From Pseudomonadota bacterium (GTDB lineage Bacteria > Pseudomonadota > Gammaproteobacteria > UBA1113), in assembly GCA_021781965.1 (NCBI GenBank), contig JAJXVU010000006.1, positions 24,948 to 88,947 on the forward strand: a DNA stretch of 64,000 bases, written 5' to 3'. This document shows positions 9,936-39,585 of the stretch, piece after piece. Every line of letters begins with the position of its first letter. Within the stretch, counting starts at the first letter, position 1. A model generated the notes under the pieces. That model did no database searches. It was not told the DNA's origin and was given only the letters and a program-made list of their open reading frames with translations. The position numbers were made by a program, and so were the translations under genes.

Positions 9936-10008
<73 letters not shown>

Positions 10009-14500: not shown

Positions 14501-16262
14501 ATTTGAACAACTGATAGTTTCAATAAATCACAGTCAATATTGTAAATTACACAATTTTATCTCCTATACTATAAACAATGGTTTGCTAACCAAAGATAGC
14601 TTGGTAAGTATTATGTCTCAACAGGCAGAGCAACTTATTGCAGATGGAAATTATACCGCCTATTTGCGATTAATCAGATTTGCCTTATCTTTTAACATTT
14701 TCATAAAGCATCAAGATAGCGCATTTGTAAAACGTAAACTTACCCTTCCAAACACCCCCAATTCACTTCTAGATAAAACTATTTTATACGATGCACAACA
14801 GAATGAAACGTTTATAGACAGCATTGAGAATAAAGCAACTAGTCAATACGCTTTTTCAGACTTGGAAAATACGTATAATATAAACGAATTAGAAGCGGAA
14901 TATGCTAATTTGAATCGATATGCATGCTATCAGGATGATATTGAATTCTATACAAAAATCCATAATTTCATAGTGCTAAAAAAAGCTTCAGCCAAAGGAA
15001 ATGCTTACGCATCCTTTGCTGTGGCAAGACTTTATAAGGATAAACTAGACAGTGTTCCAAAAAACTTTAGACCGACAAGAGGCAATAAGCAATTAATAGT
15101 CATTTATTCCACCATTGCACTCCAACAAGCCCTTGACATGGATGATGAAATTTCGGCCAAAAAAATACAAGCATTTTGCAAGAAAAATAATTTTATATTA
15201 CCTTGTTTTGAAGAAATGTATTACTCTCATATACTTGAATTAATGAATAGCAAGCCAGACACTGAAGATTTTAATACAAAATTGAGGAATTTTTTACTGC
15301 TTGCTGTATCCATTGATCTTAGCCCAGTTTTGCTTGAAAGTACATATGAATCGAAAAATAAGCAAAACGCCATGAGAATAGTTGAGGAATGTCTTTCTGG
15401 TAAAGATTTATCTAAAATAGATGCCGTACTGCGTATCTATGACAAGCTGTGGATGAAAGGGTGTTATATACAATCAAAAGATGGCGCGCTTGACTCAAGT
15501 GATCCCCGAATACTACTACCTAAATTGCTATTTCAGCAACAATACCAAGCAGTAAAACTCGCCTTAATTACTATAGAAGAAACCAGCAAACCGCAAAAAT
15601 CAGCTATTGACACTAAAGCACTTTGCAAACAACTTGCTAAACAGTTGAAAGTAAAGGAAATGACTATATCAAGGTATTTAAACCATATTTACAAACATAT
15701 TTCTATAGATCCACTGTATCAAAAAGATCTCGAAGGTCTAGGGACATCAGAAGAGGAAAAAATAGTAACGACCCTTACTGCGATCTGTAGACACTCTAAT
15801 ATTTCTTTAGAAATCTTTTCTATAGCAGACCCCTCCCCTGTGTCAAATAACCATCGTAAAGTTAATGCTAAGGATAAAGAAGCGACTAGACTAAAAATTA
15901 AATCTATTAAATCTGATGAAAAAATGTTTCAGGACGCCGTCTGCGCTGTATTCCAAAGATTACCTAATGGGCAAGATGTGGTTACCAGCATTGATATAAT
16001 AAAAGAATTAAGATTCAAGCACGGGATATCGATACCCGCCGCTATTCGCCTGATTGGAAACGTATATGCACATAAAGTACCAGCAAAATCGAGTACCGCT
16101 CAGCCAAACAATAATATATATAGACTATATCCATCGCAACAAGTATCTTTAGAACAACAATTAGAGATCCTTCTTAAGCCCTTAAAAATCCAATTGATAG
16201 CAGGGGCATCCTTACCGGAAAGCGAAGAAATCCAAAATAATGATATTCGTCCAGACTTTTAA
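11586..16262 (+). CDS. Large (1558 aa) hypothetical protein with internal AIPP(A/V)D(Q/E)AQ tandem repeats; candidate secreted effector
   Basis: Single uninterrupted ORF, AT-rich, with no recognisable catalytic motif. The 8 x 27-bp repeat is in frame. The acidic C-terminal tail (ESEEIQNNDIRPDF) is loosely like type IVB substrates. Confidence 0.7.
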   Translation: MYLNNNELDLKVKVLIETENYMELIKLALALEIHEDQYSFEIKKNIIHKILTVHPSTVKESIPQGDHIWQQFLLLLNPTDSDHSPLQLDWLRALTQKYYTEEYVLDKNSTLAHMLFLTQWIQHTNAWTRTNNEFPFFLFDYLNTDWELNDSKMFNYYETINQICALNDPVIFQSIFQPKKENSNLSNIVRHLLKTEENIQPNHVKNAICYLLEHYKDDHEKSFPLIFIYFFKRKNNTTLEQKELSFFKENLFTLLRCYNEQKNGHNRYRSPAFNKFLIEALSKKSFSTSEEMTHILLFIQLHRIKDPQFIHEVSKKSMQLEPSEGIIKFLVELAIINSDLAVLRELLNRYSRELLLPLANKFLEKKRTIDPRVIGFLYAYKNEILPEYSVLDFLVTDYYDYCYHIWNITENAAQDILLEVNTGVESSMNPEGSKKIHASAIKKFPEIDPAKSYRECIEYIANQLQKLEGNMHALENPEARKSFLPEAPIVEAIPPADQAQAIPPVDQAQAIPPADQAQAIPPADQAQAIPPADEAQAIPPADEAQAIPPADEAQAIPPVDQAVEAMVPAEKIMTEEQKQTALYHTALRLLMHDENAGLDPYFEGFETAVGYCYELAKRVNCLDIFIQQDLVYIRRAHNLDTLKRRQEAADYSSCPPGTQGRLYQFYAFAYNNIIATENQLKKFSIVSINNEIKSLVIQNLSEMTRNFLRDDSYQLTQIIYYYQASASMILDESDLKVAKVNAEKAINYILENKIDYLKLYRKLVRLYTERPISECPNEIKERLKDLIAYQFRVVLLHEEPQKDYYENIAFWETFPNEVIHKIYPLILLHFLDASLPQDASALLAKNPEEKQENKSKNSVADSLDFNKLAEMVIYMPLPVLEPFRTEITNNLSHLAYLSVKEHSEQKIYRFMENIRALKNSGILPNENIINFFRLFVGIVKDDESFDIKTILLLKAAIADPNDILQRPLPFNIFEQLIVSINHSQYCKLHNFISYTINNGLLTKDSLVSIMSQQAEQLIADGNYTAYLRLIRFALSFNIFIKHQDSAFVKRKLTLPNTPNSLLDKTILYDAQQNETFIDSIENKATSQYAFSDLENTYNINELEAEYANLNRYACYQDDIEFYTKIHNFIVLKKASAKGNAYASFAVARLYKDKLDSVPKNFRPTRGNKQLIVIYSTIALQQALDMDDEISAKKIQAFCKKNNFILPCFEEMYYSHILELMNSKPDTEDFNTKLRNFLLLAVSIDLSPVLLESTYESKNKQNAMRIVEECLSGKDLSKIDAVLRIYDKLWMKGCYIQSKDGALDSSDPRILLPKLLFQQQYQAVKLALITIEETSKPQKSAIDTKALCKQLAKQLKVKEMTISRYLNHIYKHISIDPLYQKDLEGLGTSEEEKIVTTLTAICRHSNISLEIFSIADPSPVSNNHRKVNAKDKEATRLKIKSIKSDEKMFQDAVCAVFQRLPNGQDVVTSIDIIKELRFKHGISIPAAIRLIGNVYAHKVPAKSSTAQPNNNIYRLYPSQQVSLEQQLEILLKPLKIQLIAGASLPESEEIQNNDIRPDF
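13059..13274 (+). repeat. Eight head-to-tail 27-bp repeats (GCAATTCCTCCGGCAGACCAAGCACAA and variants) inside the 1558-aa CDS
   Basis: Counted unit by unit. Units 1, 3 and 4 are identical. Units 5-7 are identical to each other and differ by C>G (Q>E). Units 2 and 8 carry C>T (A>V). Unit 8 diverges at its end. Confidence 0.97.
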
Positions 16263-21336: not shown

Positions 21337-23769
21337 TTATTGAAAATTAGGACTCACATTACATCCTATTACCTTCGGCTGCAGCTGTGCTGTCTCATAT
21401 TTAACTTTTTTGGATGTGGGCAAACATGGTTCTGACCAAAACTGAACTCGTCCAACTTCACGTTTGCGCTTTTTATCTTGTACCGGACTCAAAGCTCTGT
21501 TTACTGAATCTGGAGATTTATTTTCCAACTCCATAGCTTGGCTTTCTAGCTCCACAGCTTGACTTGTTAACCCCCTAGCTTGACTCTCAAACTTCCTGGC
21601 TCTATTCTTCTGCTCGCTAGCTTGAGATTCCAACTCCCTAGCTTCAATTTGCTTATCCCGAACCTCGTTCATCCAACCATTAACTTCTTTTTTGTACTCC
21701 GAGACTTTTTCTTGGAGTAAATTCAAAGATTCTTGTCGGGAATCTAAGTTCCTCTTGACAAGATCTAGTTCGTTCTTTCTATCTTCAATTATTTTCTTTT
21801 CAGTGTCCGCTGATTTACTGATAGAATATAGGATTTTTTTTGCTACATCCACGGCTGCTTTTGCTGAATTTACCTCTTTTCTTGCTGAATTTAAATTAAC
21901 ACCTACATTATTCAAAGAAATAATTAACGAGCCCAATAATTCTTTTACAGAAGATAGGTAGGTGTTTTCCATGAGAAATTCTCTGGTTACCTCATTCAAA
22001 TCTGCGCTTACATCATCCAAACTTTCCTCTACATCATCAAGATTTTCTTCTCCATCGTCCAAAACTCCTATTACCCACTTTAAAGATCCTGTTACCCACT
22101 TTAAAGATTCTCCTACAAGATATAAATCCTTTTTTACATCGTAAAAATCACGGTCTAATTTTTCAGCATCTACTTCTGCGATCTTCAAGCACAAATCCAC
22201 ACACCTCAAGGTATCTTTTTCAAATTTCAGAACTTTATCTGCAAAAGCCACGGAAATTTCGTAACGTAATTGTTCTATCTGTACATCGTCCAAATCGTAG
22301 CCTACTTTTTTAGCCTCTACTTCCGAGCGCGTCAAAAACAAATCCACGTACTTCAAGGTATCTTTTTCAAATTTCAGAACTCTATTTGCAAAAGACAAGG
22401 TGATTTCATAGCGCAACCACTCTAAGTGGTGGTGTAATGATTCAAAAATGTTTTTTGCAAAAGATACAGATTTTTCCAGCAGATCTTTGCTTGCCATCCC
22501 TTTCAATTCGCTTTTTTCTAAATCTCTAAAATAACTGTCAATCTTTTTCGACACCTCGTCAAATCCCGCATAAAACCCAAAGATTGTTAGTGGGTAGTGA
22601 GCTATAAAGTATTCCTCAACTTGTGTATTAAATCCTTCTGGCAAGCTTAAGCTCATATCTCGATTATTATAATTTCCATGTATCAAATACGAACATGTTT
22701 TAACTAAATTCGATACCGCACACAGAATCTGATAGGGTCCTTTTTTCAAAAGATGGAACTTCTGATAGGCTGGTTGCTCCGGATCCCAAATAAATAGGGG
22801 CAAATCTTCCCTTGTCATTGAAAGGGCTCTGTCGAGTTTTTCATACGGAGATATAATACCATCAAAATCAATTAAAAAAGCTTCTGATTGGTTAACGCAT
22901 ACGTTGTCTAGCTTTAAATCGCAATGAACTAGCTTATCCTTCAAAAGCAAAATTTTAACTTTATCAATTAGTGACTCGGCAATCTCAATTCGTTTATCCA
23001 CAGAATATTTATTATCATTAACAACGTCAATAAGGCTATCGCCTAAATTAGGCATTAAAAACCCATACTGATTTTGAGATTCGCTTTCTCTAATACGAAA
23101 TAATTTCTTTGTTCCTGTATGAAAAAAATGCGCGTTAAAAACCTCTACTGTAAAGTCTTCTTCTGTAAAACCTGCTTCGTTTTGCCCTTTTTCTTTTTCA
23201 TGTTGCCTAAATAGCATTAACACATACTTATTATGTTTATCTTTATAAGCAGCGGGTCCGCCTTTTTTAATTGACATCCACCAATCTACTTTATATACTT
23301 CTTTCAATCCGCCAAGGATTTTTTCAGGCCCAACACAAACAATCCAAGTATTACCTTTATTACTTTCTATCTTAAAAAGAGACCCTCCACTAAAAGATAT
23401 AGAATAATTCCCCATGGGGCAATTTTCTTTTTCATTTATCTTGGCGCCTGTGAAAACTGTTCTATGCGGATCGATCGTATTGTCATTATCATCACTACTA
23501 GACCTTACCTGTTCATCGCTACTAAGTGCTAATGATTCACCACTAGAACTCATCTTTTCCTGCTCTGGGCTAAGAGGAAGCGTGTCTAATTCGCTACTAG
23601 AAATTGATTCCTCTAATTTGTCCTTGCTCAAGCCTTCAGCAGCATTCCCCTCTATATCAATGCCGAACCTGCCTAAAAAAAGCTGTCTCAACGCATCGTA
23701 ATGTTCCGCGGGTTCTTTAGTTTCAATAATGCGCCCCACTTCCTCGACCGAAATGTCTATCGTCTTCAT
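21337..23769 (-). CDS. Eukaryotic-type protein kinase domain protein with long repeat-rich coiled-coil C-terminus; candidate effector
   Basis: Catalytic loop HCDLKLDN (aa 282-289, nt ~22903..22926) followed by LIDFDG (DFG equivalent). The N-terminal region is acidic and Ser-rich. The C-terminal half has internal repeats and a KKRKRE basic cluster. Confidence 0.75.
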   Translation of the reverse strand: MKTIDISVEEVGRIIETKEPAEHYDALRQLFLGRFGIDIEGNAAEGLSKDKLEESISSSELDTLPLSPEQEKMSSSGESLALSSDEQVRSSSDDNDNTIDPHRTVFTGAKINEKENCPMGNYSISFSGGSLFKIESNKGNTWIVCVGPEKILGGLKEVYKVDWWMSIKKGGPAAYKDKHNKYVLMLFRQHEKEKGQNEAGFTEEDFTVEVFNAHFFHTGTKKLFRIRESESQNQYGFLMPNLGDSLIDVVNDNKYSVDKRIEIAESLIDKVKILLLKDKLVHCDLKLDNVCVNQSEAFLIDFDGIISPYEKLDRALSMTREDLPLFIWDPEQPAYQKFHLLKKGPYQILCAVSNLVKTCSYLIHGNYNNRDMSLSLPEGFNTQVEEYFIAHYPLTIFGFYAGFDEVSKKIDSYFRDLEKSELKGMASKDLLEKSVSFAKNIFESLHHHLEWLRYEITLSFANRVLKFEKDTLKYVDLFLTRSEVEAKKVGYDLDDVQIEQLRYEISVAFADKVLKFEKDTLRCVDLCLKIAEVDAEKLDRDFYDVKKDLYLVGESLKWVTGSLKWVIGVLDDGEENLDDVEESLDDVSADLNEVTREFLMENTYLSSVKELLGSLIISLNNVGVNLNSARKEVNSAKAAVDVAKKILYSISKSADTEKKIIEDRKNELDLVKRNLDSRQESLNLLQEKVSEYKKEVNGWMNEVRDKQIEARELESQASEQKNRARKFESQARGLTSQAVELESQAMELENKSPDSVNRALSPVQDKKRKREVGRVQFWSEPCLPTSKKVKYETAQLQPKVIGCNVSPNFQ
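22150..22443 (-). repeat. Two tandem 147-bp (49-aa) repeats inside the kinase gene
   Basis: GGTATCTTTTTCAAATTTCAGAAC recurs at 22210 and 22357. Peptides: LRYEITLSFANRVLKFEKDTLKYVDL... and LRYEISVAFADKVLKFEKDTLRCVDL... Confidence 0.9.
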
Positions 23770-24064: not shown

Positions 24065-25108
24065 ATGATACCGCTAGAGTTAAAAAATAAGTATTATCAG
24101 GCACTTTTGAATAAAGATACTGAATATGAGGGTCTCTTTTATGTGGGTGTGAAAACAACCGGTGTATTTTGTAGACCCACTTGTACTGCAAGGAAGCCTA
24201 AGATTGAGAATTGTGAATTTTTTGAAACCGCAGAGCAAGCACTCTTAGCTTCATTTCGACCCTGTAAGCGATGTCGACCACTATCCCATCCGGCTGAAAT
24301 TTCCGAGTTAGTGAGTACACTCGTGGATGCCATTGAAGCAAATCCTGAAAAAAGATGGAAGGATGCAGATTTTAGAGCTTTATCGATTGATGCTTCAACG
24401 GTGCGTCGTCAATTTAAAAAGCGCTTTGGCATGACGTTTGTTGCCTATGCACGTGCAAGACGCATGGGTTTAGCAATGGGTCAAATTAGAGCCGGCAATG
24501 CGGTCATTGACGCTCAGCTTGCAGTGGGATATGACTCCAGCAGCGGCTTTAGAGATGCCTTTTCAAAGATCATGGGGACAGCACCTACTCGTGCCACAGA
24601 GGATACTATTTTAAAAGCGGCTTGGTTAGACACTAGGCTTGGTCCAATGATCGCGATTGCAAATGAATCTGGTCTTCTACTATTAGAGTTTGTGGATCGC
24701 AGAGGACTGGAACGCGAAGTAGAACGCCTTAGAAATAAAACTAAATCGGGAATTATTCCTGGCAGAACAAAACCAATTGATTTAATAGAAAAAGAACTTG
24801 AACAATATTTTCAATGTGGTCAAAAAAAATTTAATACGCCTATTGTTATGCTAGGCTCGGACTTTCAAAAAAGTGTTTGGCATGAATTAATAAAGATTCC
24901 ACCTGGTGAAACCAGATCGTATGCTGATATTGCAAAAGCTATCAAACAGCCCTCGGCATGTAGAGCTGTGGCACGCGCCAATGGTGCTAATCAACTCGCT
25001 GTTATTATTCCATGTCATCGAGTTATTAATTCTGATGGGGAACTAGGTGGCTATGGCGGTGGACTTACTCGCAAAGCATGGTTAATTAATCACGGAAAAA
25101 TAGGATGA
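24065..25108 (+). CDS. ada: Ada: methylphosphotriester-DNA methyltransferase / AraC-type regulator / O6-methylguanine-DNA methyltransferase
   Basis: N-terminal Zn-Cys cluster (CRPTCTARKP...PCKRC), a central AraC-type HTH, and a C-terminal MGMT active site IIPCHRV. Confidence 0.9.
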   Translation: MIPLELKNKYYQALLNKDTEYEGLFYVGVKTTGVFCRPTCTARKPKIENCEFFETAEQALLASFRPCKRCRPLSHPAEISELVSTLVDAIEANPEKRWKDADFRALSIDASTVRRQFKKRFGMTFVAYARARRMGLAMGQIRAGNAVIDAQLAVGYDSSSGFRDAFSKIMGTAPTRATEDTILKAAWLDTRLGPMIAIANESGLLLLEFVDRRGLEREVERLRNKTKSGIIPGRTKPIDLIEKELEQYFQCGQKKFNTPIVMLGSDFQKSVWHELIKIPPGETRSYADIAKAIKQPSACRAVARANGANQLAVIIPCHRVINSDGELGGYGGGLTRKAWLINHGKIG

Positions 25109-25124
25109 AAGATGAAAAAATAAA

Positions 25125-25664
25125 TTGAGTACAATCATTTATTTAGAAACCTACATGTCAAGGGAGACCCTCTCATTCTTTTCAACATTTGGGATGTTGC
25201 CAGTGCTAATTGACATAGGTATTGTGGGCATTAACTTTGAAGATCAAATCATTGGAAAAAATAGTCTCTATTCAATAGAGAAGCAATGTACTCGAATTGC
25301 TGCAATTCGAAAAGCCGCAACAGAAAAATCAATGCCCTTATTCATAAATGCACGTACAGATATTTTTTTGCAAACCGATCCATCGAATCATACCAAAATC
25401 CATTTGGAAGAAGCATTAGCAAGAGCAATAGCTTATGCTGACGCTGGAGCAGATGGTTTTTTTGTTCCGGGGTTACGTAATATGGACTATATTACTACAT
25501 TATGTACTCTATCCCCTATTCCGATTAATATCCTGATGAATTCAGAAGATTTATCCGTAAAAAGGCTTAAAGATGCGGGTGTTGCTCGCATAAGTTATGG
25601 AGAAAGTCCATTCTTGCACGTTATGAAGACATTAAAAGAAAACACTTTTTCAGCTTTGCTTTAA
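25125..25664 (+). pseudogene. Truncated isocitrate lyase/PEP mutase family gene (C-terminal ~150 codons)
   Basis: It retains ...LPVLIDIG-IVGINFEDQ...NARTD...YADAGADGFFVPG. It lacks the ~75-aa N-terminal barrel strands and part of the segment between the DxE/G and EDQ motifs. The ORF opens on TTG with no ribosome-binding site. Confidence 0.6.
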
Positions 25665-25710: not shown

Positions 25711-26388
25711 TCAAGAAAGTGGTTTTAAACTTTCGAGCTGTGTTAACCATTGGTTAAAATGAGAACATTTTTTGCGCATTGCGGCTAAACCGATCTGTTT
25801 TGCGATATTGATTCCGTGAATTCTTTTGCTATAGCCACTAAATTTATTAGTTATTCGTTTAGAAGGCGCCGTTTCCCCGCCATCATTAATTGCTTCTGGA
25901 TCAGGATACTGCTTTACTATGTCTTGGATATGGTCAACAGCAGAAGTAGAGAATGCTCTCCAAGCACAAGGTTCACTGAATAAAAGAGTTTCAAACTCAT
26001 GCATTTGTATATGAGGAATAAAACGCTCTTGTGCTATCTTTTGGGCGGTTGCATCTTCCAAAATTTTAGCTTTCGCTTCTGGCTGTAACTGTGTTTTGCT
26101 TTGTTTTAGCGCGTTAATTTTGTCCATTCCAGGCCATTGGCTATCAATGCGGAAAAAATCAAACATAGTTGAAATATAGCAGCTTTTTTGCACTAGTGCC
26201 AAATCCCTTTTTAATTTTTCAAACTTAACATTGCCGCCTATTTTCCCTAATGTGCTGGCTGTAAGATAAATTTCTTTGTGTGCAAATTCCGGTTGTAAAA
26301 TTTTTCGAACAAAATCTTGTTCAGTTTGTCCTTCTACAATTAAATGGATATAAACAGCCGCCTCACTCATTACTAGGCATTCCTTCAA
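25711..26388 (-). CDS. DUF4276-like protein (possible Toprim-like nuclease partner of the upstream ATPase)
   Basis: The N-terminal hLIVEGQTEQDFV motif and ~220-aa length match my recollection of the DUF4276 family. The likely start is MSEAAV at 26370, which overlaps the ATPase stop by 8 nt. Confidence 0.6.
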   Translation of the reverse strand: MKECLVMSEAAVYIHLIVEGQTEQDFVRKILQPEFAHKEIYLTASTLGKIGGNVKFEKLKRDLALVQKSCYISTMFDFFRIDSQWPGMDKINALKQSKTQLQPEAKAKILEDATAQKIAQERFIPHIQMHEFETLLFSEPCAWRAFSTSAVDHIQDIVKQYPDPEAINDGGETAPSKRITNKFSGYSKRIHGINIAKQIGLAAMRKKCSHFNQWLTQLESLKPLS

Positions 26389-27472
26389 TCAAATTTTTAC
26401 ACCAAATCTCTCCTAAAGAATACTCTTCCAACCACGCAGATAAGTCTATCTTATCTAATCGCGTAAAAGTAGATGCTCCATCCTTACGATCCACGATTAT
26501 AACATCTTTTGGCTCAAAATGGCTCAACAATGTGGGTGATTGCGTGGAAATAATAATTCTGGAAAGATTAGTTCTACGTGAGGCTAATTTAATTAGCTCA
26601 GACAACACCTCAATAGCATAAGGATGTAAACCCAGCTCAGGTTCATCTATGACTAAACAACTTGGCAGTTCAGGTTGTAACAATGCTGCAGCCAGGCAAA
26701 TAAAACGCAAGGTTCCATCAGACAATTGGTATGGTGCAAATGGATAATCTGAACCCTTTTGACTCCAATTTAATTTAACTACTGTCGCTGGACCTCTTTG
26801 TTCCGGTATTAAATCAAAATCGTTAAAAAAAGGTGCTACTAGTTGAATTACTTCAACTATCTTTTTATAATAGTCTGGTTTGTTATTCTTTAAATTTAGT
26901 AAAAATGGGGCGATATTTCTGGCATCATTTCTCAAATATTTGTAATCATCCACACTTTCTGAAAGACGCATTCCAGAAAACATACTAGTATCATGAAAAT
27001 GGTATGCTATCCATTTAGAAATAGCATCATAAATATAATGGCCTATCCCATGCTTACCAATAATTCCTAATTCTTCTTTGTTTTTTTTAAGGCTGCTTTC
27101 ATATTGATCACCCCCTTTTTTTTGCCAATTCGATGATTTTATATAGCGCTGCTCTTCACTTTTAATTAATAGCTTTTCATCAGCCGTCATAGCCAGCGTG
27201 AAACGATATTGATTATCACCAAACATAAAATGCATTTTTATTTCGGGAGTTATTTTAGGTCCGTTAAAGAAAAAAGAGCTGGGGCCACCCGATTTCATAA
27301 TATAGTCTTGTAAGTTCTCATCCATCATCTTGCGCAACAAATGAAATAGGCTCACAAAATTACTTTTCCCTGCGCCATTAGCACCAATCAGCACATTCAA
27401 GCTTTTAATTTCAAAGTCTATTAATTGTGAAATGGACTTAAAGCCTTCTATGCTCAATTTTTCTAATGTCAT
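26363..27472 (-). CDS. ABC/SMC-type AAA ATPase (AAA_21-like)
   Basis: Walker A GANGAGKSN, signature-like LSDGTLRF, Walker B LVIDEPELGLHP, and STQSP in place of the H-loop. There are no TM or DNA-binding domains. Confidence 0.8.
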   Translation of the reverse strand: MTLEKLSIEGFKSISQLIDFEIKSLNVLIGANGAGKSNFVSLFHLLRKMMDENLQDYIMKSGGPSSFFFNGPKITPEIKMHFMFGDNQYRFTLAMTADEKLLIKSEEQRYIKSSNWQKKGGDQYESSLKKNKEELGIIGKHGIGHYIYDAISKWIAYHFHDTSMFSGMRLSESVDDYKYLRNDARNIAPFLLNLKNNKPDYYKKIVEVIQLVAPFFNDFDLIPEQRGPATVVKLNWSQKGSDYPFAPYQLSDGTLRFICLAAALLQPELPSCLVIDEPELGLHPYAIEVLSELIKLASRRTNLSRIIISTQSPTLLSHFEPKDVIIVDRKDGASTFTRLDKIDLSAWLEEYSLGEIWCKNLIEGMPSNE

Positions 27473-27527
27473 TTTTACCTACTTCGTTTTGTGACTAAGT
27501 TTCGTTACATGTATAAAAATTTTCCTG

Positions 27528-27585
27528 GATTGCCACGCTTGCTCGCTGCACTCGCGGCTCGCAATGACGAGCTAGAGCCATAAGA
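27528..27585 (+). repeat. REP family 2 copy (…TTGCCACGC-TTGCTCGCTGCACTCGCGGCTCGCAATGACGAGC…)
   Basis: ~55-bp match to 39516..39585, in the intergenic region between the ATPase gene and ftsK. Confidence 0.7.
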
Positions 27586-27646
27586 ATAATATCCCGCATT
27601 GTATATCCATTCTAGTCCGTCAAAGACAAAATATCAAGATAAGAAT

Positions 27647-30007
27647 TCATTCCACCGAACTGCGCACCAACACCTCACGGCCACCGTTAGAGCCGGGTCT
27701 GCTGACCACACCGGCAGCTTCCATGTCCTCAACTAGACGGGCGGCGCGATTAAAGCCTATCTTGAAACGTCGTTGTATGGATGAAATTGAAACTCTGCCG
27801 CTATCGATTACTAAGTTGACGATTTCATCATATAAGGGATCGGCTTCTCCCGTAGATTGAGAACTCGCACCACCACCTTCGCCAGCATCGTCATCCGATT
27901 CTAAGACTTCAACCAAGTATTGCGGTTCGCCATAAGCGCGGCGCAACTCGCTCACTACATTGTGCACTTCTTCGTCGGCCACATAAGCACCATGTACCCG
28001 TATAGGCACGCCTGTTCCAGGCGGCAAATACAACATGTCACCATGGCCTAATAATTGCTCCGCGCCTTGTTGATCTAAGACCGTGCGCGAATCAATGCGC
28101 GAAGATACTTGGAAACTCAAACGCGTCGGAATATTGGCCTTAATCAAGCCGGTGATCACATCTACCGACGGTCTTTGCGTCGCTAAAATTAAATGTATCC
28201 CCGCGGCACGCGCTTTTTGCGCTATACGTGCGATAAGCTGCTCTACTTTCTTGCCGACCACCAACATCATGTCGGCAAATTCGTCGACGATCACCACCAC
28301 TGAGGGCAAAGGCGCTAAAGGATCGCGCGAACCATCTGGAAATTCCGGTTGCACCATATTGACTAGAGGTTTACCCTCTTTAATGGCTTCCTTAATCTTT
28401 TGATTGTAACCCGCCAAATTACGCACACCTAAAGATGCCATCAACGCATAGCGCTTATCCATCTCCGTCACACACCATTTCAAGGCATTGGCCGCTTCGC
28501 GCATGTCCGTCACCACCGGCGTTAATAAATGTGGAATGCCCTCATATACCGACAATTCTAACATTTTAGGATCAACCATGATAATGCGCACTTCGTCAGG
28601 TTTGGCTTTATACAATAAACTTAAAATCATCGCGTTTAAGCCCACGGATTTACCAGCACCTGTCGTACCTGCTACCAATAAATGTGGCATCTTGGCTAAA
28701 TCGACAATGATCGGCAAGCCCGCAATATCCTTACCCAAAGCCATACTTAAGGGTGATTTCGATTGTTGATATTGTTTGGATTCTAAAACTTCTCGCAAAC
28801 GCACCGTTTCGCGTATATCATTTGGTAATTCTAAGCCTATAAAGGATTTACCCGGGATCACTTCTACCACCCGTACACTGACGACCGATAAAGCCCGTGC
28901 CAAATCTTTAGAAAGCCCTGTAATTTTACTAACTTTAACCCCGGGGGCTAAACTCATTTCATAACGAGTCACTACCGGTCCTGGATGCACCCCTTCTACC
29001 CGTACTGCGACACCAAAATCCGCTAAATGGCGTTCCACTTCCCGTGATTTTTCTTCCAAAGCCTGGCGGGAAAAGGGCATCACTTGTTTGGATTCGGGCT
29101 GTTCTAATAACTCTAAAGAGGGTAAACCATCCACCAAACCCTTAGCACCCGTTATTTTAGGTGCTTTAGGTGACGGCGTTGCCGCAGGCGCTTTAGGTGC
29201 TTCAATGCGTATAGGCGACGCTTCGACTTTAGCTTCTGCAATTGAGGGTCTTTCAATTTTGATGGGCTTGTTTTTTTGAATAATGGGTTCAGGTTCCTCT
29301 TCCCTTTCCCTGGGCACTCTCATGGCTTGCCAATATTGTGCTAAGCCTAGTCTAAATGCCTTGAACCAAGCGAGCAATTTAATACTGCTGCGATGCAAAA
29401 ATTGCCGCCAAATTAAGCCCGTGAAAAAAGTAACGCCTATAAAGAACAAAGCCAATAAAATGACGCTGGCGCCAAAAGCATTAAAATAAGAAGTTAATAA
29501 ACCCGAAAAAGCACTGCCTAAAATACCGCCTGGAGGGGCAGGAAAATTGGCCGCATGGTGGGTATCCCATAAATTTAATAAGGCACTGCCCGCGGCAACA
29601 ATCAAACAAAAACCCATCCATTTGCTGCTGAGTAGATGCCAATTGGCTTCGCCTGAAATAACTGCTTTATCTTTAATATTGAACCAAGCGGCAGCGGCTA
29701 TCATGGCAGGCAAACAATAAGCCCAATAGCCGACGAAGGAGAATAAGATATCGGACAAATAAGCGCCTACACGCCCACCTGCATTGGCAATATCCGGCCT
29801 GCTGGCTGTGCGCAACCAACCTGGATCGCTGTGATGATAAGTAATGAGTGCTAATAAAACATATAAGGCAAAAGCAACCGTTAATATAAGGACGCCTTCA
29901 CGCAGACGGTGTAGCAATTCTTGAGGTAAAGGAGCTTTAATAGGTTCTTCTTTTTTACGCCCTTCCTTTTTACGTTCTTCTTTTTTACGTCCTTTTTTTG
30001 CAGCCAC
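27647..30007 (-). CDS. ftsK: DNA translocase FtsK
   Basis: 786 aa. N-terminal TM segments, a Pro/Ala-rich linker, the motor Walker A GTTGAGKS, and a gamma domain ...[24 protein letters not shown]. The Lys-rich N-terminal extension is encoded by short tandem repeats at ~29940..30000. Confidence 0.93.
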
Positions 30008-30729: not shown

Positions 30730-33700
30730 TCAATCTTCTGCCATTGCCAAGGCTTCTTCCATATCGACCGACACCAGTCTCGATACGCCAGGCTCTTTCA
30801 TCGTCACGCCAATCAAGTTTTCAGCCATTTCCATCGCCACTTTATTGTGACTAATATAAATAAACTGTAATTCTTTGGACATTTCCTTAACCAGATTACA
30901 ATAGCGAAATACGTTGTTGTCGTCTAGAGGGGCATCTACCTCATCCAACATACAAAACGGGGCTGGATTTAGACGGAATATAGAGAACACCAAGGCTATG
31001 GCCGTCAATGCTTTTTCCCCGCCCGACAATAGATGAATAGTAGCATTACGTTTACCTGGCGGTCTAGCCATAATGGAGACCCCCATATCTAATAATTCTT
31101 CGCCAGTGGCTTCCAGGTAGCACTCGCCACCGCCAAATATCTTAGGGAATAATTGCTGTAAATGGCTGTTGACTTTATCAAAGGTATTTTTAAACAAGGC
31201 CTTGGTTTCGTGGTCAATCTTCTGAATAGCGTCTTCCAAAATAGTTAAAGCCTCAACCAAATCGTCGTTTTGCTTGTCTAGATAAATCTTGCGTTCGGAC
31301 TCGCTTTGGTATTCTTCTATGGCGGCCAGATTGATGGCGCCTAACCGTTGGATGCGATCCAGCACTTTTTGCAGGGCTTCTTCTAACAGTAATTCCGTCA
31401 TTTCAGGGTCTAATATCGCCTGCGTTGCCTCTACCGAAATGGCATGAGCTTCTATCTGTTCTTGCAAGCTTTGCTGACGCACCACTACCGTTTGTTTGTC
31501 TAAGCGAGATTTTTCCAATCGATTACGTATGCCTTCCAGCTTATCTTCAATGTCGTGGCGACTTTGTGTCAATTCACGCATCTTAAATTCAACGGCTTCT
31601 AATTGCGCACGGGTAATTTGTAAGGCTTTGTCGGCTTCGATTCGTGCCGCCAAGGCATCTTGTAATTCTTGTTGTAAATCTTCTAACGGCGCTTCACTAT
31701 TGTTTAAAGACTGTTGCAACTCGCTATGTTTTTCTTCTATTACTTTTAATTGCTGTGTGGTACGTTGCAGATGTTCTGTTTTGGCAGTCAACTCGCTTTT
31801 TAGGCTTTGCTCTTTAATGCGCAAGCTTTGCATGGTGTCATGCGTAGTCTTGGCCTCTACTCTTGCACTCTGCACTTGTTGTTGCAATGTTTCTTTATGC
31901 GTTAGTAATGTTTGTCTAGTGCTGGATTGACTTTCCATTGCAGTCATCGCTTGTTGCCATTGATGACGCGCAGTGGATAAATCGCCGGCGAAAGATTCTA
32001 AGCGCGCTTTCTCGTCTGCCTTATCTTTCTCATTTTGTGCCAGGCGTTGTTTTAATTGTTCAATACGATTTTGTTCAATTCTAAGATTAGCGCGTGCTTC
32101 AGCAATTTGCTGACCCAATTGTTGCAAGGTACGTTGCGACTCTTCTTGCGTTGTTTGCAATTGTTGTCGCTGAGTTTGTATCTCGTTTATTTCTTTATCT
32201 AAGGCGGCTACGCGAGCTTCATTTTCTTGCAAGCGAAGTTGCAAGGCACTGATTTGTCCTTCGCGTTTTAAAACACCTTCTTCATTGCTACTCGCTTTAG
32301 GAACGCTGATGCCATACTGTGAAATCCAAATGCCTTCTTTGGTAATAAAAGAAGCTTCTTTGGCGTTATTTTTGATTAACGCCAAGCCTTCGCACACATC
32401 TGCAACCACATAAATATTTTGCAATAAATGAGCCCATTCCTGACCACTTTGCAATAAACTCGCTAAAGAGGGTTGGTTGCTAATCGATGCATTAGCAGCA
32501 GATACGGTTTGTGGTGGATACAATAATTGTAAGTTGTTAGGTAAAGCATTCTGCTCTACAGCTGCACTCAATGCCGCCACATTTTCTAAACAAACTGCTT
32601 GTAATTGCTCGCCCAATACGGCTTCTAACGCGGTTTCGTAACCCGCAGCTATACGCAATACTTGTGCTAAACGCGCCTTGTCGGCAAAACCTTGTGCTTT
32701 TAGCCAATCTACTGTTTTGCTATTGTCCTGACCCAATGCCGCTTGTTGCAAAGTTTGCAGAGATTGTAATTGACCTTGGCCTTTGCGCAATTCTGTTTTT
32801 AAGGCATCTAATTCGCTGGCCATTGTTTGACGTTGTTCACGCAAACGCGAAATTTCGTTTTGTTGCTCGGTTTTGGCCGTTTCTAATGTTTGTTTTTGTT
32901 GTTCTAAAGCTTGTATTTGCGCGTCGGCTATAGTATTGGTCTCGCCGTCACTATTTTGTTCGCGTAAACGACTATTGTCTGCCTCTAAACGCTCGATACG
33001 ATTACGGCTGCTTTGTTGTTGTGCTTCTAAATGGCGAATGCGCGTCTGCTCAACTTCGGCTTCCTTCATGCTAAGGGCTGCTAATTGATTGAAGCTATCC
33101 CATTGTTGTTGCCAATCGTCGTAAGCTTGTTCGGCTTGACCTAAATGCTGGGCAGCGATTTCCGCTTGGCCACTGTGTTCGGCTAAAGGCGTTGCCACTT
33201 CGGCCAATTCGGCTGTTAACCATTGAATGCGCGCCGTATCTTGTTCTTGATGTTGCAACATTTCTTGCAAGGAGCTTTGAGTTGATTCTAGATCGTCTTG
33301 CCATTGTTCACGTCGTTCTTTTTGATAGGCGATTGCTTGTTCGATGCGTGTCACCTCAGAGCCCGCAGTATAATAAGTAGCTTGGGTTTCATTTAAAGCA
33401 TCGCTGCGCGTACTATGATGTTCTTGCTCTACTTCTAAAAATTTTTCTACTTCGCGCAAAGCCGCCATTTGGCTTTCTAAGCTAACTTCCAGTTCGCGTA
33501 TGGCTGTGCTCAATTCCGCATCTTCGGCTGTTAAACGCATTAAGCGGCGTGTTAATAATTGCGCGCGCAAGGCATCTTCTTCGGTTTTGAATTCTTTATA
33601 GCGTTGTGCATTGGCCGATTGACGTTCTAGTCGTTGTAATTGCTTGTCTAATTCTTCGCGCAAATCGTTTAGGCGATCTAAGTTTTCACGCGTATGGCGT

Positions 33701-34266
33701 ATGCGGGTTTCAGTTTCACGCCTACGCTCTTTATATTTAGATATGCCCGCGGCTTCTTCTAGATAAACGCGTAACTCTTCGGGTTTGGCTTCAATCAGAC
33801 GAGAAATCATGCCTTGTTCGATAATGGCATAGCTGCGCGGCCCCATACCGGTGCCTAAAAATATATCTACTATGTCGCGACGTCTGCAGCGCACATTGTT
33901 CAAAAAATAGGTAGATTGCCCTTCACGGGTCACTAAGCGTTTGATAGCGATTTCAGGATATTGGGCATATTCGCCGCCCAAAGCCCCATTGGGATTGTCG
34001 AATAATAACTCTACCGAGGCCTGCCCTATAGGTTTACGGGCAGTAGAACCGTTAAAAATAACATCCGTCATACCCTCGCCACGCAGCTGCTTGGCGGAGC
34101 TTTCACCCATCACCCAGCGCACGGCATCGATAATATTGGACTTTCCACAGCCATTAGGCCCTACAACGGCCGTTAAATGCCCAGGGAATGAGACTACCGT
34201 CGGGTCAACAAATGACTTAAATCCGACTAACTTGATGTTTTTTAAGCGTAATTTGGCTTCTTGCAT
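30730..34266 (-). CDS. smc: Chromosome partition protein SMC
   Basis: 1178 aa. Walker A GPNGCGKSN, a long coiled coil with a central hinge, the signature LSGGEKALTAIALVF, and Walker B CMLDEVDAPLD. Confidence 0.95.
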   Translation of the reverse strand: MQEAKLRLKNIKLVGFKSFVDPTVVSFPGHLTAVVGPNGCGKSNIIDAVRWVMGESSAKQLRGEGMTDVIFNGSTARKPIGQASVELLFDNPNGALGGEYAQYPEIAIKRLVTREGQSTYFLNNVRCRRRDIVDIFLGTGMGPRSYAIIEQGMISRLIEAKPEELRVYLEEAAGISKYKERRRETETRIRHTRENLDRLNDLREELDKQLQRLERQSANAQRYKEFKTEEDALRAQLLTRRLMRLTAEDAELSTAIRELEVSLESQMAALREVEKFLEVEQEHHSTRSDALNETQATYYTAGSEVTRIEQAIAYQKERREQWQDDLESTQSSLQEMLQHQEQDTARIQWLTAELAEVATPLAEHSGQAEIAAQHLGQAEQAYDDWQQQWDSFNQLAALSMKEAEVEQTRIRHLEAQQQSSRNRIERLEADNSRLREQNSDGETNTIADAQIQALEQQKQTLETAKTEQQNEISRLREQRQTMASELDALKTELRKGQGQLQSLQTLQQAALGQDNSKTVDWLKAQGFADKARLAQVLRIAAGYETALEAVLGEQLQAVCLENVAALSAAVEQNALPNNLQLLYPPQTVSAANASISNQPSLASLLQSGQEWAHLLQNIYVVADVCEGLALIKNNAKEASFITKEGIWISQYGISVPKASSNEEGVLKREGQISALQLRLQENEARVAALDKEINEIQTQRQQLQTTQEESQRTLQQLGQQIAEARANLRIEQNRIEQLKQRLAQNEKDKADEKARLESFAGDLSTARHQWQQAMTAMESQSSTRQTLLTHKETLQQQVQSARVEAKTTHDTMQSLRIKEQSLKSELTAKTEHLQRTTQQLKVIEEKHSELQQSLNNSEAPLEDLQQELQDALAARIEADKALQITRAQLEAVEFKMRELTQSRHDIEDKLEGIRNRLEKSRLDKQTVVVRQQSLQEQIEAHAISVEATQAILDPEMTELLLEEALQKVLDRIQRLGAINLAAIEEYQSESERKIYLDKQNDDLVEALTILEDAIQKIDHETKALFKNTFDKVNSHLQQLFPKIFGGGECYLEATGEELLDMGVSIMARPPGKRNATIHLLSGGEKALTAIALVFSIFRLNPAPFCMLDEVDAPLDDNNVFRYCNLVKEMSKELQFIYISHNKVAMEMAENLIGVTMKEPGVSRLVSVDMEEALAMAED

Positions 34267-34469: not shown

Positions 34470-36248
34470 ATGTATCCTTCACACGATGAACTCATTCTAT
34501 TGGCCCGAATATTAGCGAAAGATTTAGGCTATGAAGGCGATGTCAATGCTATCAATGGACTGTGTTATGGCTCTTGCAGTCCAGTTATGGATGCGGTCTT
34601 AACGGATATACATAAGATCGTAGAATTCAATGCGCAATTGCAGTGGGTCAAAGAACTCATAGAGTATAAACATATTCTACAAAATATGCACTTACTTTCA
34701 GAAAAAGAAAAAATAAAAATTCTAGCATTTTTTCGTAAAATTATGCTCAATCACAATCCCCGTGCATTTGTAAGATCGCAAAAACTAGGTCATGTGCCTT
34801 ATACACAAGAATTAGCAGAAACAATGCCACTGGTTCAATCTGATGCATTAAAAGAATTAGGTGGGTTATATAAGGTAACGGCCTTCTCTGGGTTTTATAA
34901 TCTTGATACAGATATTGATTTATTTCACTATTTGACTTCATTGAAAAAAGCTGTTAAAGAATTACAGCCTGCTACTGATATTCCATTCTCATTACTGATC
35001 CAAAATGGCGGCCATGCTATTCTACTGAGTTATAACTCGTCCAGCAAGACACTTCCATGGTTTTTTTTTGATATAGAACAAGGTCCAGTATATGGACTTA
35101 ATTTCCAAGACATGGATACATTATTAGTGTCTCTCTTAAAAAGCGGACTTTTAACAAGCTCAGACAATGATAGTAAAAATTACGCAGTAGTCACCTGTTT
35201 CTATTGTTCAGAGCATAACAAGAAAAAAGCATTGAAATTGAGCAAGGTTTTTCAGTTCAATTTAGAATTTTATGAATTAACAAAGATTACTCTAGAGAAA
35301 ATAAACCAAAAAGCAGCTTTAGGCTATACCTATCTTCATCTCAGTGCACAACTTGGAGATATAAATACCGTACAATCTATTATAAAGCTAAGCACTGTTC
35401 ATATTGATTGTCTAAGCCACAGCGGATTGTCTCCTCTTATTCTCGCCATTCAAAATGGGCACACTAAAATTGTAGAATTACTGCTGCAAAATGGGGCTAA
35501 AGTAAACCTGCAACAAAATGGATGGTCAGCCCTGATGTATGCCTCTCAAGATGGACACGCTAAAATTGTAGAATTACTCCTTCAATATGGAGCCAACATA
35601 AATTTATGCGCTCACTCTGGATTATCCGCTATTGCAATCGCTGCTAAAAATAAACAGGCAAGAATAGTAGAGTTACTCATAGAAAACGGCGCTCATAGTT
35701 TTGCTTTATGGAATATTTTTATCTGCCCGATAGATGGAGCGGATATTGTTTTTACCTTAATCAAAGAGAATAGTACTACATTAGATCGATACCTATCACC
35801 CATTCTAAAAAGCCACGACCCCGAAAATAAGCTATTGGCCAATATGTTAAATGCACTGTTTCAGATCAATAGTGAAAATGAAGTATATCGCCAAATTAAC
35901 GATTTTGAAACTATCTTTAAACGAAAGTTTTTAATACTCATGAAAAAAGATTCGCTAAAGCCCGAAGATAAGATATGTCTAATCAAGCTGTACATTCTAC
36001 TTCGTACGCACGATGAAATATGCAGGAGAAACATTATCAAGTCAGGTTTGACTTACTTTTTCAAACCTGAATGTGCTTATGAAAAGAAAATAGCAGAAGC
36101 CCAAGATTTGCTAACGGCTGTTGGAAATAACTCACCTATTCCAGCGGGCCTTTTAGCATTACAAGACGGTAACTTAAAGATTATCACATCGCGTTGTTTC
36201 CCCGAAGGAAAAGAATGCACAGCAATGACTTCGTCACTCTGTGTATAA
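34470..36248 (+). CDS. Ankyrin-repeat protein with uncharacterised N- and C-terminal domains; candidate effector
   Basis: About 4 ANK repeats at aa ~285-408 (nt ~35322..35693): GYTYLHLSAQLGD..., GLSPLILAIQNGHTKIVELLLQNGAKVN, GWSALMYASQDGHAKIVELLLQYGANIN, GLSAIAIAAKNKQARIVELLIENGA. Confidence 0.85.
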   Translation: MYPSHDELILLARILAKDLGYEGDVNAINGLCYGSCSPVMDAVLTDIHKIVEFNAQLQWVKELIEYKHILQNMHLLSEKEKIKILAFFRKIMLNHNPRAFVRSQKLGHVPYTQELAETMPLVQSDALKELGGLYKVTAFSGFYNLDTDIDLFHYLTSLKKAVKELQPATDIPFSLLIQNGGHAILLSYNSSSKTLPWFFFDIEQGPVYGLNFQDMDTLLVSLLKSGLLTSSDNDSKNYAVVTCFYCSEHNKKKALKLSKVFQFNLEFYELTKITLEKINQKAALGYTYLHLSAQLGDINTVQSIIKLSTVHIDCLSHSGLSPLILAIQNGHTKIVELLLQNGAKVNLQQNGWSALMYASQDGHAKIVELLLQYGANINLCAHSGLSAIAIAAKNKQARIVELLIENGAHSFALWNIFICPIDGADIVFTLIKENSTTLDRYLSPILKSHDPENKLLANMLNALFQINSENEVYRQINDFETIFKRKFLILMKKDSLKPEDKICLIKLYILLRTHDEICRRNIIKSGLTYFFKPECAYEKKIAEAQDLLTAVGNNSPIPAGLLALQDGNLKIITSRCFPEGKECTAMTSSLCV

Positions 36249-39399: not shown

Positions 39400-39585
39400 T
39401 CTGTGCAACTCAGTCGATGGATGGACTCAGCCCTCACTTCGTTCGCACTTCGCCCTTCGGGCGCACTGCGTGCGTCAAAAATGCTCGCCGTGCTTCGCAC
39501 TTTTCGCTCGCATTTTTTGCCACGCCTTGTTCGCTGCGCTCACTGGCTCGCAATGACGGTCGTGTAGCTTCCTACTATAAGAATC
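39400..39585 (+). repeat. REP family 2 region (TCGCACTT-type sub-repeats plus the GCTCGCAATGACG core at ~39516..39585)
   Basis: The 3' part matches 27528..27585. The 5' part holds several short TTCGCACT/GCGCACT sub-repeats. It accounts for the spurious ORFs 39385..39567 and 39417..39698. Confidence 0.65.

Follow-up and report, generated by a model that had tools for sequence, protein, structure and literature searches.

HEC-01 (Hma-embedded candidate 01) was defined as a gene pair, encoding an ATP-binding cassette (ABC) ATPase and a TOPRIM protein, that is embedded in Hma systems and has a metal-binding site shared with the OLD nuclease of Burkholderia pseudomallei (BpOLD) (bioRxiv 10.1101/2024.01.29.577857). 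It ranks among the more abundant candidate systems in metagenomes (PMC12881386), and later surveys still regard it as unvalidated. Here, we describe a gene pair of this type in a 64,000-nucleotide (nt) stretch of an uncultured gammaproteobacterial metagenome-assembled genome (MAG) (assembly GCA_021781965.1, contig JAJXVU010000006.1), referred to below as the window. On profile matches, the pair is a member of the HEC-01 family. We consider it reasonably probable that it is an intact, stand-alone member in which an ATPase controls a Toprim nuclease directed against phages or invading DNA, in the manner of PARIS and OLD. An earlier note, made by reading the DNA sequence, had put the pair forward as an uncharacterized module whose function was undefined. 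The architecture is in fact no new kind of system, being already named, catalogued (PADLOC HEC-01), and tested in two studies, with conflicting results.

Comparison with described systems

Both window proteins match PADLOC models (HEC-01A and HEC-01B) along their entire length and show the same architecture, with adjacent and co-oriented genes. Unlike the described HEC-01 systems, the window copy stands alone beside smc-zipA-ftsK and is not embedded in an Hma, BREX, or restriction-modification (RM) locus.

In mechanism, PARIS is the closest analogue, since it is likewise split into two genes, one for an ABC ATPase (AriA) and one for a separate Toprim-fold effector (AriB, DUF4435). The window ATPase matches the generic AriA/AAA_21 model (E value, 1.3e-32), and both ATPases belong to the same AAA_15/21 defense ATPase radiation; the AAA15/21 tree in the PARIS paper likewise includes DUF4276, the family of the window partner. 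The two systems differ in that the partner has no AriB/DUF4435 match and in that the window ATPase is smaller (369 amino acids [aa] versus 464 aa for the AriA chain in the PDB). Furthermore, PARIS is described as often encoded in viral genomes, whereas phage and viral collections contain essentially no members of the window family.

For the nuclease as modeled, the nearest relative in structure is OLD. The OLD proteins (P2 Old and BpOLD) and GajA share with the window pair the logic of an ABC ATPase joined to a Toprim nuclease, and structural matches include the Toprim region of BpOLD for the partner, where it is the best match, and GajA for the ATPase. However, the OLD and GajA domains lie in one polypeptide, and the window pair consists of two genes, a fused form being found at a single locus described below. 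The partner also lacks the second Asp of the Toprim DxD motif. In contrast to Gabija, no GajB-type helicase lies next to the pair, which is flanked by FtsK and the remnant of a phosphoenolpyruvate (PEP) mutase-family gene.

Mad3 and Mad4 of MADS represent the same Pfam-level pair (AAA_21 plus DUF4276) within a defense operon. MADS reaches full activity only with both of them: deletion of mad3 or mad4 weakens defense, and cells do not survive losing the methylase unless mad2 or mad3 has been deleted as well. The Menshen study placed DUF4276 in the Toprim superfamily and named Mad4 as a homologue (PMC12065111). The PADLOC mad3 model matches the window ATPase (1.9e-24), but no other mad genes are near, and the sole mad8 match in the window is FtsK. 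Membership in MADS was rejected on the basis of the NCBIfam MAD3 score (109 bits versus a cutoff of 420 bits). The MANTIS preprint, which was considered as related work, proved to be unrelated and mentions no pair of a Toprim protein and an ABC ATPase.

An overlapping gene pair of the HEC-01 family

The two genes are co-oriented and overlap by 8 nt, as can be read directly in the sequence (Table 1). Judging from strong matches to AAA_21, DUF4276 (full profile), HEC-01A, and HEC-01B, both are real genes rather than chance open reading frames (ORFs). The partner ORF opens at a TTG codon (26388), but translation probably starts at the ATG at 26370, which yields a protein that begins MSEAAVYIHLIVEGQTEQDFV. 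Relatives have N termini that align with the one defined in this way, and gene callers in three independent assemblies also picked this start. A Shine-Dalgarno-like AAGGA (26385-26381) lies 10 nt upstream of this ATG, and the overlap is a probable site of translational coupling.

The ATPase, HEC-01A, matched AAA_21 (3.4e-35), AAA_15, and SMC_N in Pfam, and it matched the PADLOC HEC-01A model PDLC04175 (3.1e-138) over residues 2-366 of 369. Much weaker matches to the PADLOC models AriA, AbiLi, Old, GajA, and mad3 were obtained with the ATPase only. A Walker A motif (GANGAGKSN, residues 30-38), an ABC signature (LSDGTLRF, residues 250-257), and a Walker B/D-loop segment (LVIDEPELGLHP, residues 273-284) are accompanied by a family-specific motif, YHFHDTS (residues 156-162). 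In an alignment of 70 HEC-01A-type ATPases, Walker A, YHFHDTS, LSDGTLRF, IDEPELGLHP, and STQS were invariant.

The AlphaFold2 model of the ATPase had a pLDDT (predicted local distance difference test) score of 93.4. In a Foldseek search, its best match was an SMC head (4i99; template modeling [TM] scores, 0.61/0.69), followed by Rad50, PtuA, and GajA (E values of ~1e-13). A sequence search of the PDB returned only weak, generic ABC, OLD, AriA, and PtuA matches. Because the model matches the heads of SMC, Rad50, PtuA, and GajA, HEC-01A as modeled is an ABC-type ATPase with an SMC/Rad50-like head and not an AAA+ protein.

The partner is a predicted Toprim-like nuclease

HEC-01B matched the full DUF4276 profile of Pfam (3.6e-52) and residues 7-216 of its 219 aligned with the PADLOC HEC-01B model PDLC04188 (4.3e-70). 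HEC-01B models were the sole PADLOC matches of the partner at E values of up to 1, with no AriB/DUF4435 model among them; no DUF4435 match was found in Pfam at E values of up to 5, and no NCBIfam model matched. The N-terminal motif IHLIVEGQTEQDFV occupies residues 8-21, and LIVEGQTEQDFV is present as well. Twelve residues were invariant in 61 aligned sequences (E13, G14, E17, F20, D71, E125, E127, E159, P169, K182, F205, and W208). The motifs quoted in the earlier note (Walker A, LSDGTLRF, Walker B, and the Glu motif of the partner) are all present, and its description of the pair as an AAA_21-type ATPase with a DUF4276 protein agrees with the hidden Markov model searches, in which both families were matched.

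An AlphaFold2 model of the partner, built from the 61-sequence alignment, had a pLDDT score of 95.1 and a predicted TM score of 0.90. In this model, the invariant E13 directly follows strand 1 (residues 6-12), so that the canonical Toprim Glu is present, and E17 is likewise invariant (61/61 for both residues). The invariant D71 stands at the end of strand 3 (residues 65-71), and E125 and E127 follow strand 4. The only high-probability Foldseek match in the PDB was 6nk8_A, the C-terminal Toprim region of BpOLD (probability, 0.99); PARIS AriB was far down the list (TM score, 0.35). A PDB sequence search with the DUF4276 profile gave no match even at E values of up to 10. Nine of the 61 family members also touched Pfam OLD-like_TOPRIM (best E value, 4e-5), which was the sole recurrent secondary family. 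A Toprim-like partner had already been suspected in the earlier note, and the confident model, with BpOLD as its sole credible PDB match, together with the nine OLD-like_TOPRIM contacts, points the same way. We predict that HEC-01B is most likely a Toprim-like metal-dependent nuclease.

Pairing and genomic neighborhoods of relatives

We scanned one genome per GTDB species for DUF4276 relatives, of which at least 587 were found and 80 were kept. A homologous ATPase (36-60% identity) lay directly upstream on the same strand at 77 of the 80 loci, and the other 3 loci were cut by the end of a contig; the pairing of ATPase and DUF4276 genes is obligate. The junction was an 8-nt overlap at 31 of 76 loci and a 4-nt overlap at 25 (together, 56/76), although the in-frame ATG, GTG, or TTG nearest the ATPase stop codon was taken as the DUF4276 start, a rule that biases toward short overlaps. 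In Candidatus Electrothrix aarhusensis (L017:8888-10684), the two proteins are encoded by one 598-aa ORF (ATPase, residues 5-366; DUF4276, residues 372-596; junction, ...VTGGLIMNSVEIYIVVEGQTEQ), which is a natural, OLD-like fusion unless the assembly is off by 1 nt at the overlap. At 50% identity, the DUF4276 family comprises 3,051 clusters at E values of up to 1e-3 and 2,005 at E values of up to 1e-10, and at least 8,000 relatives of the ATPase were found at E values of up to 1e-20. The DUF4276 relatives are distributed sporadically across phyla.

A survey of homologue neighborhoods, which the earlier note had proposed, was carried out on 44 loci with at least 4 kb on each side, by searching within 10 kb for relatives of eight BREX, type III RM, or SNF2 reference proteins. 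Seventeen of these well-flanked loci were inside or beside such defense genes, a lower bound because only relatives of the eight reference proteins were counted. At least two BREX type 1 genes were present at seven loci, where the pair lay mostly between PglX and PglZ, and a BrxL relative was present at an eighth. The pair was located between type III Mod and Res at three loci, with a type III gene within 10 kb at four more, and adjoined a DpdE/ZorD-like SNF2 helicase at two. Other immediate neighbors were GmrSD, type I methylases, and restriction endonuclease domains and, at some loci, plain housekeeping genes. The association of homologues with BREX and type III RM loci is in line with the earlier proposal of a two-gene defense candidate analogous to OLD, Gabija, and PARIS.

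The same neighborhoods could also be those of an accessory effector or regulator of methylation-based defenses (BREX, type III RM, or MADS-like systems), which in this genome would be an orphan whose partner system has been lost or would work with a partner encoded elsewhere. Such a role would suit the position of relatives inside most BREX-associated operons, between PglX and PglZ, and their position between Mod and Res, as well as the need of MADS for Mad3/Mad4 relatives, the dependence of methylase loss on mad2 or mad3 deletion, and the lack of defense by a stand-alone HEC-01 in one study. We nevertheless regard it as unlikely. No relative of the eight reference proteins was found within 10 kb at 27 of the 44 well-flanked loci, in a screen that is blind to other defense genes, and one 11-kb plasmid carries the pair by itself. 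Hma loci also harbor other systems, and these function on their own (bioRxiv 10.1101/2024.01.29.577857). Purifying selection has kept the copy in the window intact, the 64 kb contain no partner, and the ATPase falls far below the NCBIfam MAD3 cutoff.

Plasmids bear on another explanation, namely, that the pair is a selfish, toxin-antitoxin-like addiction module in which a Toprim nuclease toxin is restrained by the ATPase, the main effect being to stabilize the carrier DNA rather than to fend off phages. Coupling between the two genes is tight, and the putative restrainer would be made first. The pair also occurs on small plasmids next to vapBC: on an 11-kb mobilizable Acinetobacter plasmid, it lies beside vapBC and tet(39). 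Piscirickettsia plasmids are among the other plasmid carriers. The sporadic distribution across phyla is compatible with addiction, as is the Pfam label of AAA_21 as a putative AbiEii/type IV toxin-antitoxin family, but this label is a historical annotation and not a test. However, the pair was found on only 13 of 72,556 plasmid records, where it stood alone, and in the chromosome studied here, it appears to be inherited vertically. One lineage has lost the nuclease and kept the ATPase; this is the harmless order of loss, so it does not discriminate. Overall, addiction seems quite improbable to us, and the ATPase-controlled nuclease remains the reading that we prefer. Among viral sequences, 50,697 phage genomes contained no match to the pair, and IMG/VR contained it at 2 loci among 2.9 million contigs.

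Evolution of the window copy

The G+C content of the pair is ~36-37%, versus 43-49% for ftsK and smc, and this low value fits a foreign origin. The gene order smc-zipA-ftsK followed by the pair is kept in two diverged relatives, GCA_009885935.1 (L086) and GCA_009885895.1 (L089), and the flank downstream of the pair differs in each. Because the pair occupies the same place in two diverged relatives, its acquisition must be old. The ratio of nonsynonymous to synonymous substitution rates (dN/dS) was 0.06 for SMC, 0.07 for FtsK, and 0.11-0.14 for ZipA, compared with 0.15-0.20 for the ATPase and 0.27 for the DUF4276 protein; the synonymous rate (dS) was 0.67-0.87 for the pair versus 0.87-1.3 for the core genes. 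These sequence comparisons indicate vertical inheritance under purifying, but more relaxed, selection. An identical pair was present in two other assemblies and two sequencing runs. The accessory context suggested in the earlier note is thus upheld in one respect, the G+C content lower than that of core genes, but the pair is syntenic, has diverged together with its neighbors, and has no defense island around it.

Long residence beside smc-zipA-ftsK raises the idea that the pair was domesticated in this lineage for chromosome maintenance or repair, in a role formally like that of RecF and RecR. The place directly after smc-zipA-ftsK is fixed in three diverged genomes, with dS values similar to those of core genes, and in L089 the ATPase gene starts 1 nt after ftsK. 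Relatives in Methyloprofundus likewise follow smc-zipA, smc is 5 kb off at a Chloroflexi locus, and an SMC head is the best structural match of the ATPase. However, the link to smc was noticed post hoc and involves 2-3 independent lineages of ~45, and the family as a whole tracks defense loci and plasmids. The dN/dS of the pair is 2-4 times that of the flanking core genes, its G+C content is below theirs, and the nuclease gene, being broken in one relative, is dispensable. We therefore hold domestication to be very unlikely, and we give as little credence to the broader notion that some HEC-01 pairs work on the host's own chromosome, either guarding the segregation machinery or forming, in connection with segregation genes, a RecF/RecR-like module for surveillance or resolution, instead of causing classical abortive infection upon phage attack.

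The loci with smc linkage have features of their own. In Methyloprofundus (L011:60-10690, L014:263-10699, and L047:15158-18700, listed together with the Chloroflexi locus), the pair is downstream of smc-zipA, and a 1389-aa SNF2/DpdE-like protein is encoded between them. At the one Chloroflexi locus, smc lies ~5 kb from the pair. The linkage, in 2-3 independent lineages including the clade of the window, could reflect an insertion hotspot or chance.

Selection bears equally on the idea that the pair is a decaying, nonfunctional remnant in a reductive, host-associated genome. Neighboring genes have decayed (e.g., the truncated PEP-mutase gene), one relative has a frameshifted DUF4276 gene, and a HEC-01 representative gave no defense when tested in a heterologous host. 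In the window, however, both frames are intact and full length relative to the profiles, every family-invariant residue is present, dN/dS is 0.15-0.27 over a dS of ~0.7-0.9, and several independent assemblies encode the identical protein sequence. Decay of this copy is accordingly very hard to credit, the least credible of the readings considered here.

Proposed mechanism and points against it

These alternatives fit the data less well than an ATPase-controlled nuclease. In the mechanism that we propose, the two proteins would be produced together from a two-gene operon by way of the overlapping frames, and an oligomer of the ATPase would bind the nuclease and keep it in check. The ATPase would sense a cue of infection, such as a phage protein or aberrant DNA, and ATP binding or hydrolysis would then free or activate the nuclease, which would cut nucleic acid (DNA or tRNA) and abort the infection. 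For this copy, we infer complex formation, the trigger, the substrate, and protection of the host. In a metagenome study of cold seeps, a randomly chosen HEC-01 cluster gave Escherichia coli B protection from one or more of T7, T5, and T4 (PMC12881386).

Several observations weigh against this reading. The positive report gives no effect size in its text (PMC12881386), and in the only systematic test, one HEC-01 representative gave no protection against a BASEL subset and classic coliphages (bioRxiv 10.1101/2024.01.29.577857). At the H-loop position of the ATPase (TQS, residues 310-312), Gln replaces the switch His; all 70 family members have this Gln, which is therefore a family trait rather than a lesion of this copy. 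The likeness of the partner to the OLD Toprim region is moderate (TM scores, 0.46/0.49; E value, 4e-3). Of the canonical Toprim DxD, a single Asp is kept, position 73 being Tyr or Phe in 61 of 61 sequences, and catalysis is therefore predicted to need E125/E127; on the model, these residues may substitute for the second Asp and complete the metal site. The long residence of the pair beside smc-zipA-ftsK is unusual for a defense gene with rapid turnover. In L089 (9757-10417), a frameshift that follows residue ~74 divides the DUF4276 gene into ORFs of 76 and 138 aa, and the ATPase is intact; as assembled, this is a natural nuclease knockout in a sister lineage. A PADLOC profile search found no other defense system or island in the 64-kb window. 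Lastly, judging from its ankyrin-repeat proteins, the bacterium looks host-associated.

Other features of the window

The flanks of the pair were largely as the earlier note had described them. Pfam searches identified Ada and FtsK as neighbors, and the gene that it took to be decayed is a C-terminal PEP-mutase fragment, which begins 17 nt after the Ada stop codon (Table 1). The kinase effector-like gene exists as an 810-aa protein, but its match to RIO kinases is only weak. Neither L086 nor L089 has the PEP-mutase remnant, Ada, or the 810-aa gene at this position, which marks the DNA downstream of the pair as variable.

TABLE 1 Coordinates of the gene pair, its motifs, and other features of the window
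Feature	Position	Strand	Details
HEC-01A, ABC-type ATPase, 369 aa	26363..27472	Minus	ATG at 27472; TGA stop, 26365-26363
Walker A, GANGAGKSN	27359-27385		ATPase
ABC signature, LSDGTLRF	26702-26725		ATPase
Walker B/D-loop	26621-26656		ATPase
H-loop position, TQS	26537-26545		ATPase
8-nt overlap, ATGAGTGA	26363..26370	Minus	Partner ATG, 26370-26368; ATPase TGA, 26365-26363
HEC-01B, DUF4276 protein, 219 aa	25711..26370	Minus	Probable ATG at 26370; stop, 25713-25711
VEGQTE (E13/G14/E17)	26320-26337		Partner
STMFD (D71)	26158-26172		Partner
HEFE (E125/E127)	25990-26001		Partner
PEP-mutase-family remnant, N-terminally truncated	25125..25664	Plus, convergent with pair	PEP_mutase, 6.7e-41; profile positions 94-235 of 240
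Ada	24065-25108		Pfam search
ftsK-ATPase intergenic region, 174 nt	27473..27646	Minus	Consensus scan
FtsK	27647-30007		Pfam search
SMC	30730-34266		
Ankyrin-repeat protein	34470-36248		Adjoins smc
tRNA	9936-10008		Single Rfam match in window

The spacer between ftsK and the ATPase gene contains a sigma-70-like site (TTGATA-17-TAGAAT, 27637-27609), but such sites are no more numerous than in shuffled sequence. The predicted fold of the spacer is no more stable than those of shuffles (z-score, ~0), and the spacer has shrunk to 1 nt in L089. A GC-rich imperfect palindrome (27527-27568; GGATTGCCACGC...CTCGCAATGAC) is located in this AT-rich intergenic DNA, and a second, loosely related copy is found at ~39520-39560 (common stretch, CTCGCAATGACG). 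It may be a small repeat dispersed through the genome, though two copies in 64 kb are few to judge by. The earlier note had placed a repeat element beside the pair, but no flanking repeats were found, and this palindrome with its one loosely related copy is all that corresponds to it. A search for mobile-element signatures around the pair found no direct or inverted repeats beyond short matches at chance level and no terminator-like sites.

PADLOC matches elsewhere in the window were rejected as housekeeping look-alikes rather than defense genes. FtsK matched SspH (1.5e-59) and mad8 (8e-47), SMC matched mad3 (8e-57) and LmuB, an RNase T-like exonuclease matched DEDDh and PDC-S48, and the ankyrin protein matched PDC-M72A. 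Since FtsK and SMC score so strongly on defense models, single-gene PADLOC matches are not evidence of defense.

PrkA, SecA, CarAB, dehydrogenases, and transporters are encoded in the rest of the window. On the basis of SecA, which shares 75-95% identity with homologues in some MAGs and ~63% with those in Legionellales MAGs, among others, the host can be placed only as an uncultured gammaproteobacterium. Large ORFs with no or only a marginal Pfam family lie at 21337-23769 (the 810-aa protein), 11586-16262 (1558 aa), and 47601-49370 (589 aa); the C-terminal half of the 810-aa protein is long and apparently coiled-coil-like. The products of these ORFs and the ankyrin-repeat protein may be effectors with which an intracellular or host-associated bacterium interacts with its host.

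Implications for the HEC-01 family

To the catalogued HEC-01 systems, the window copy adds a clean stand-alone example in which every family-invariant residue is intact, as well as evidence of long-term vertical retention under purifying selection. The sister lineage contributes a natural knockout of the nuclease gene. In practical terms, the pair would serve as a representative for testing whether stand-alone HEC-01 provides defense and what is targeted by the DUF4276 variant of Toprim, with its single Asp and ExE motif.

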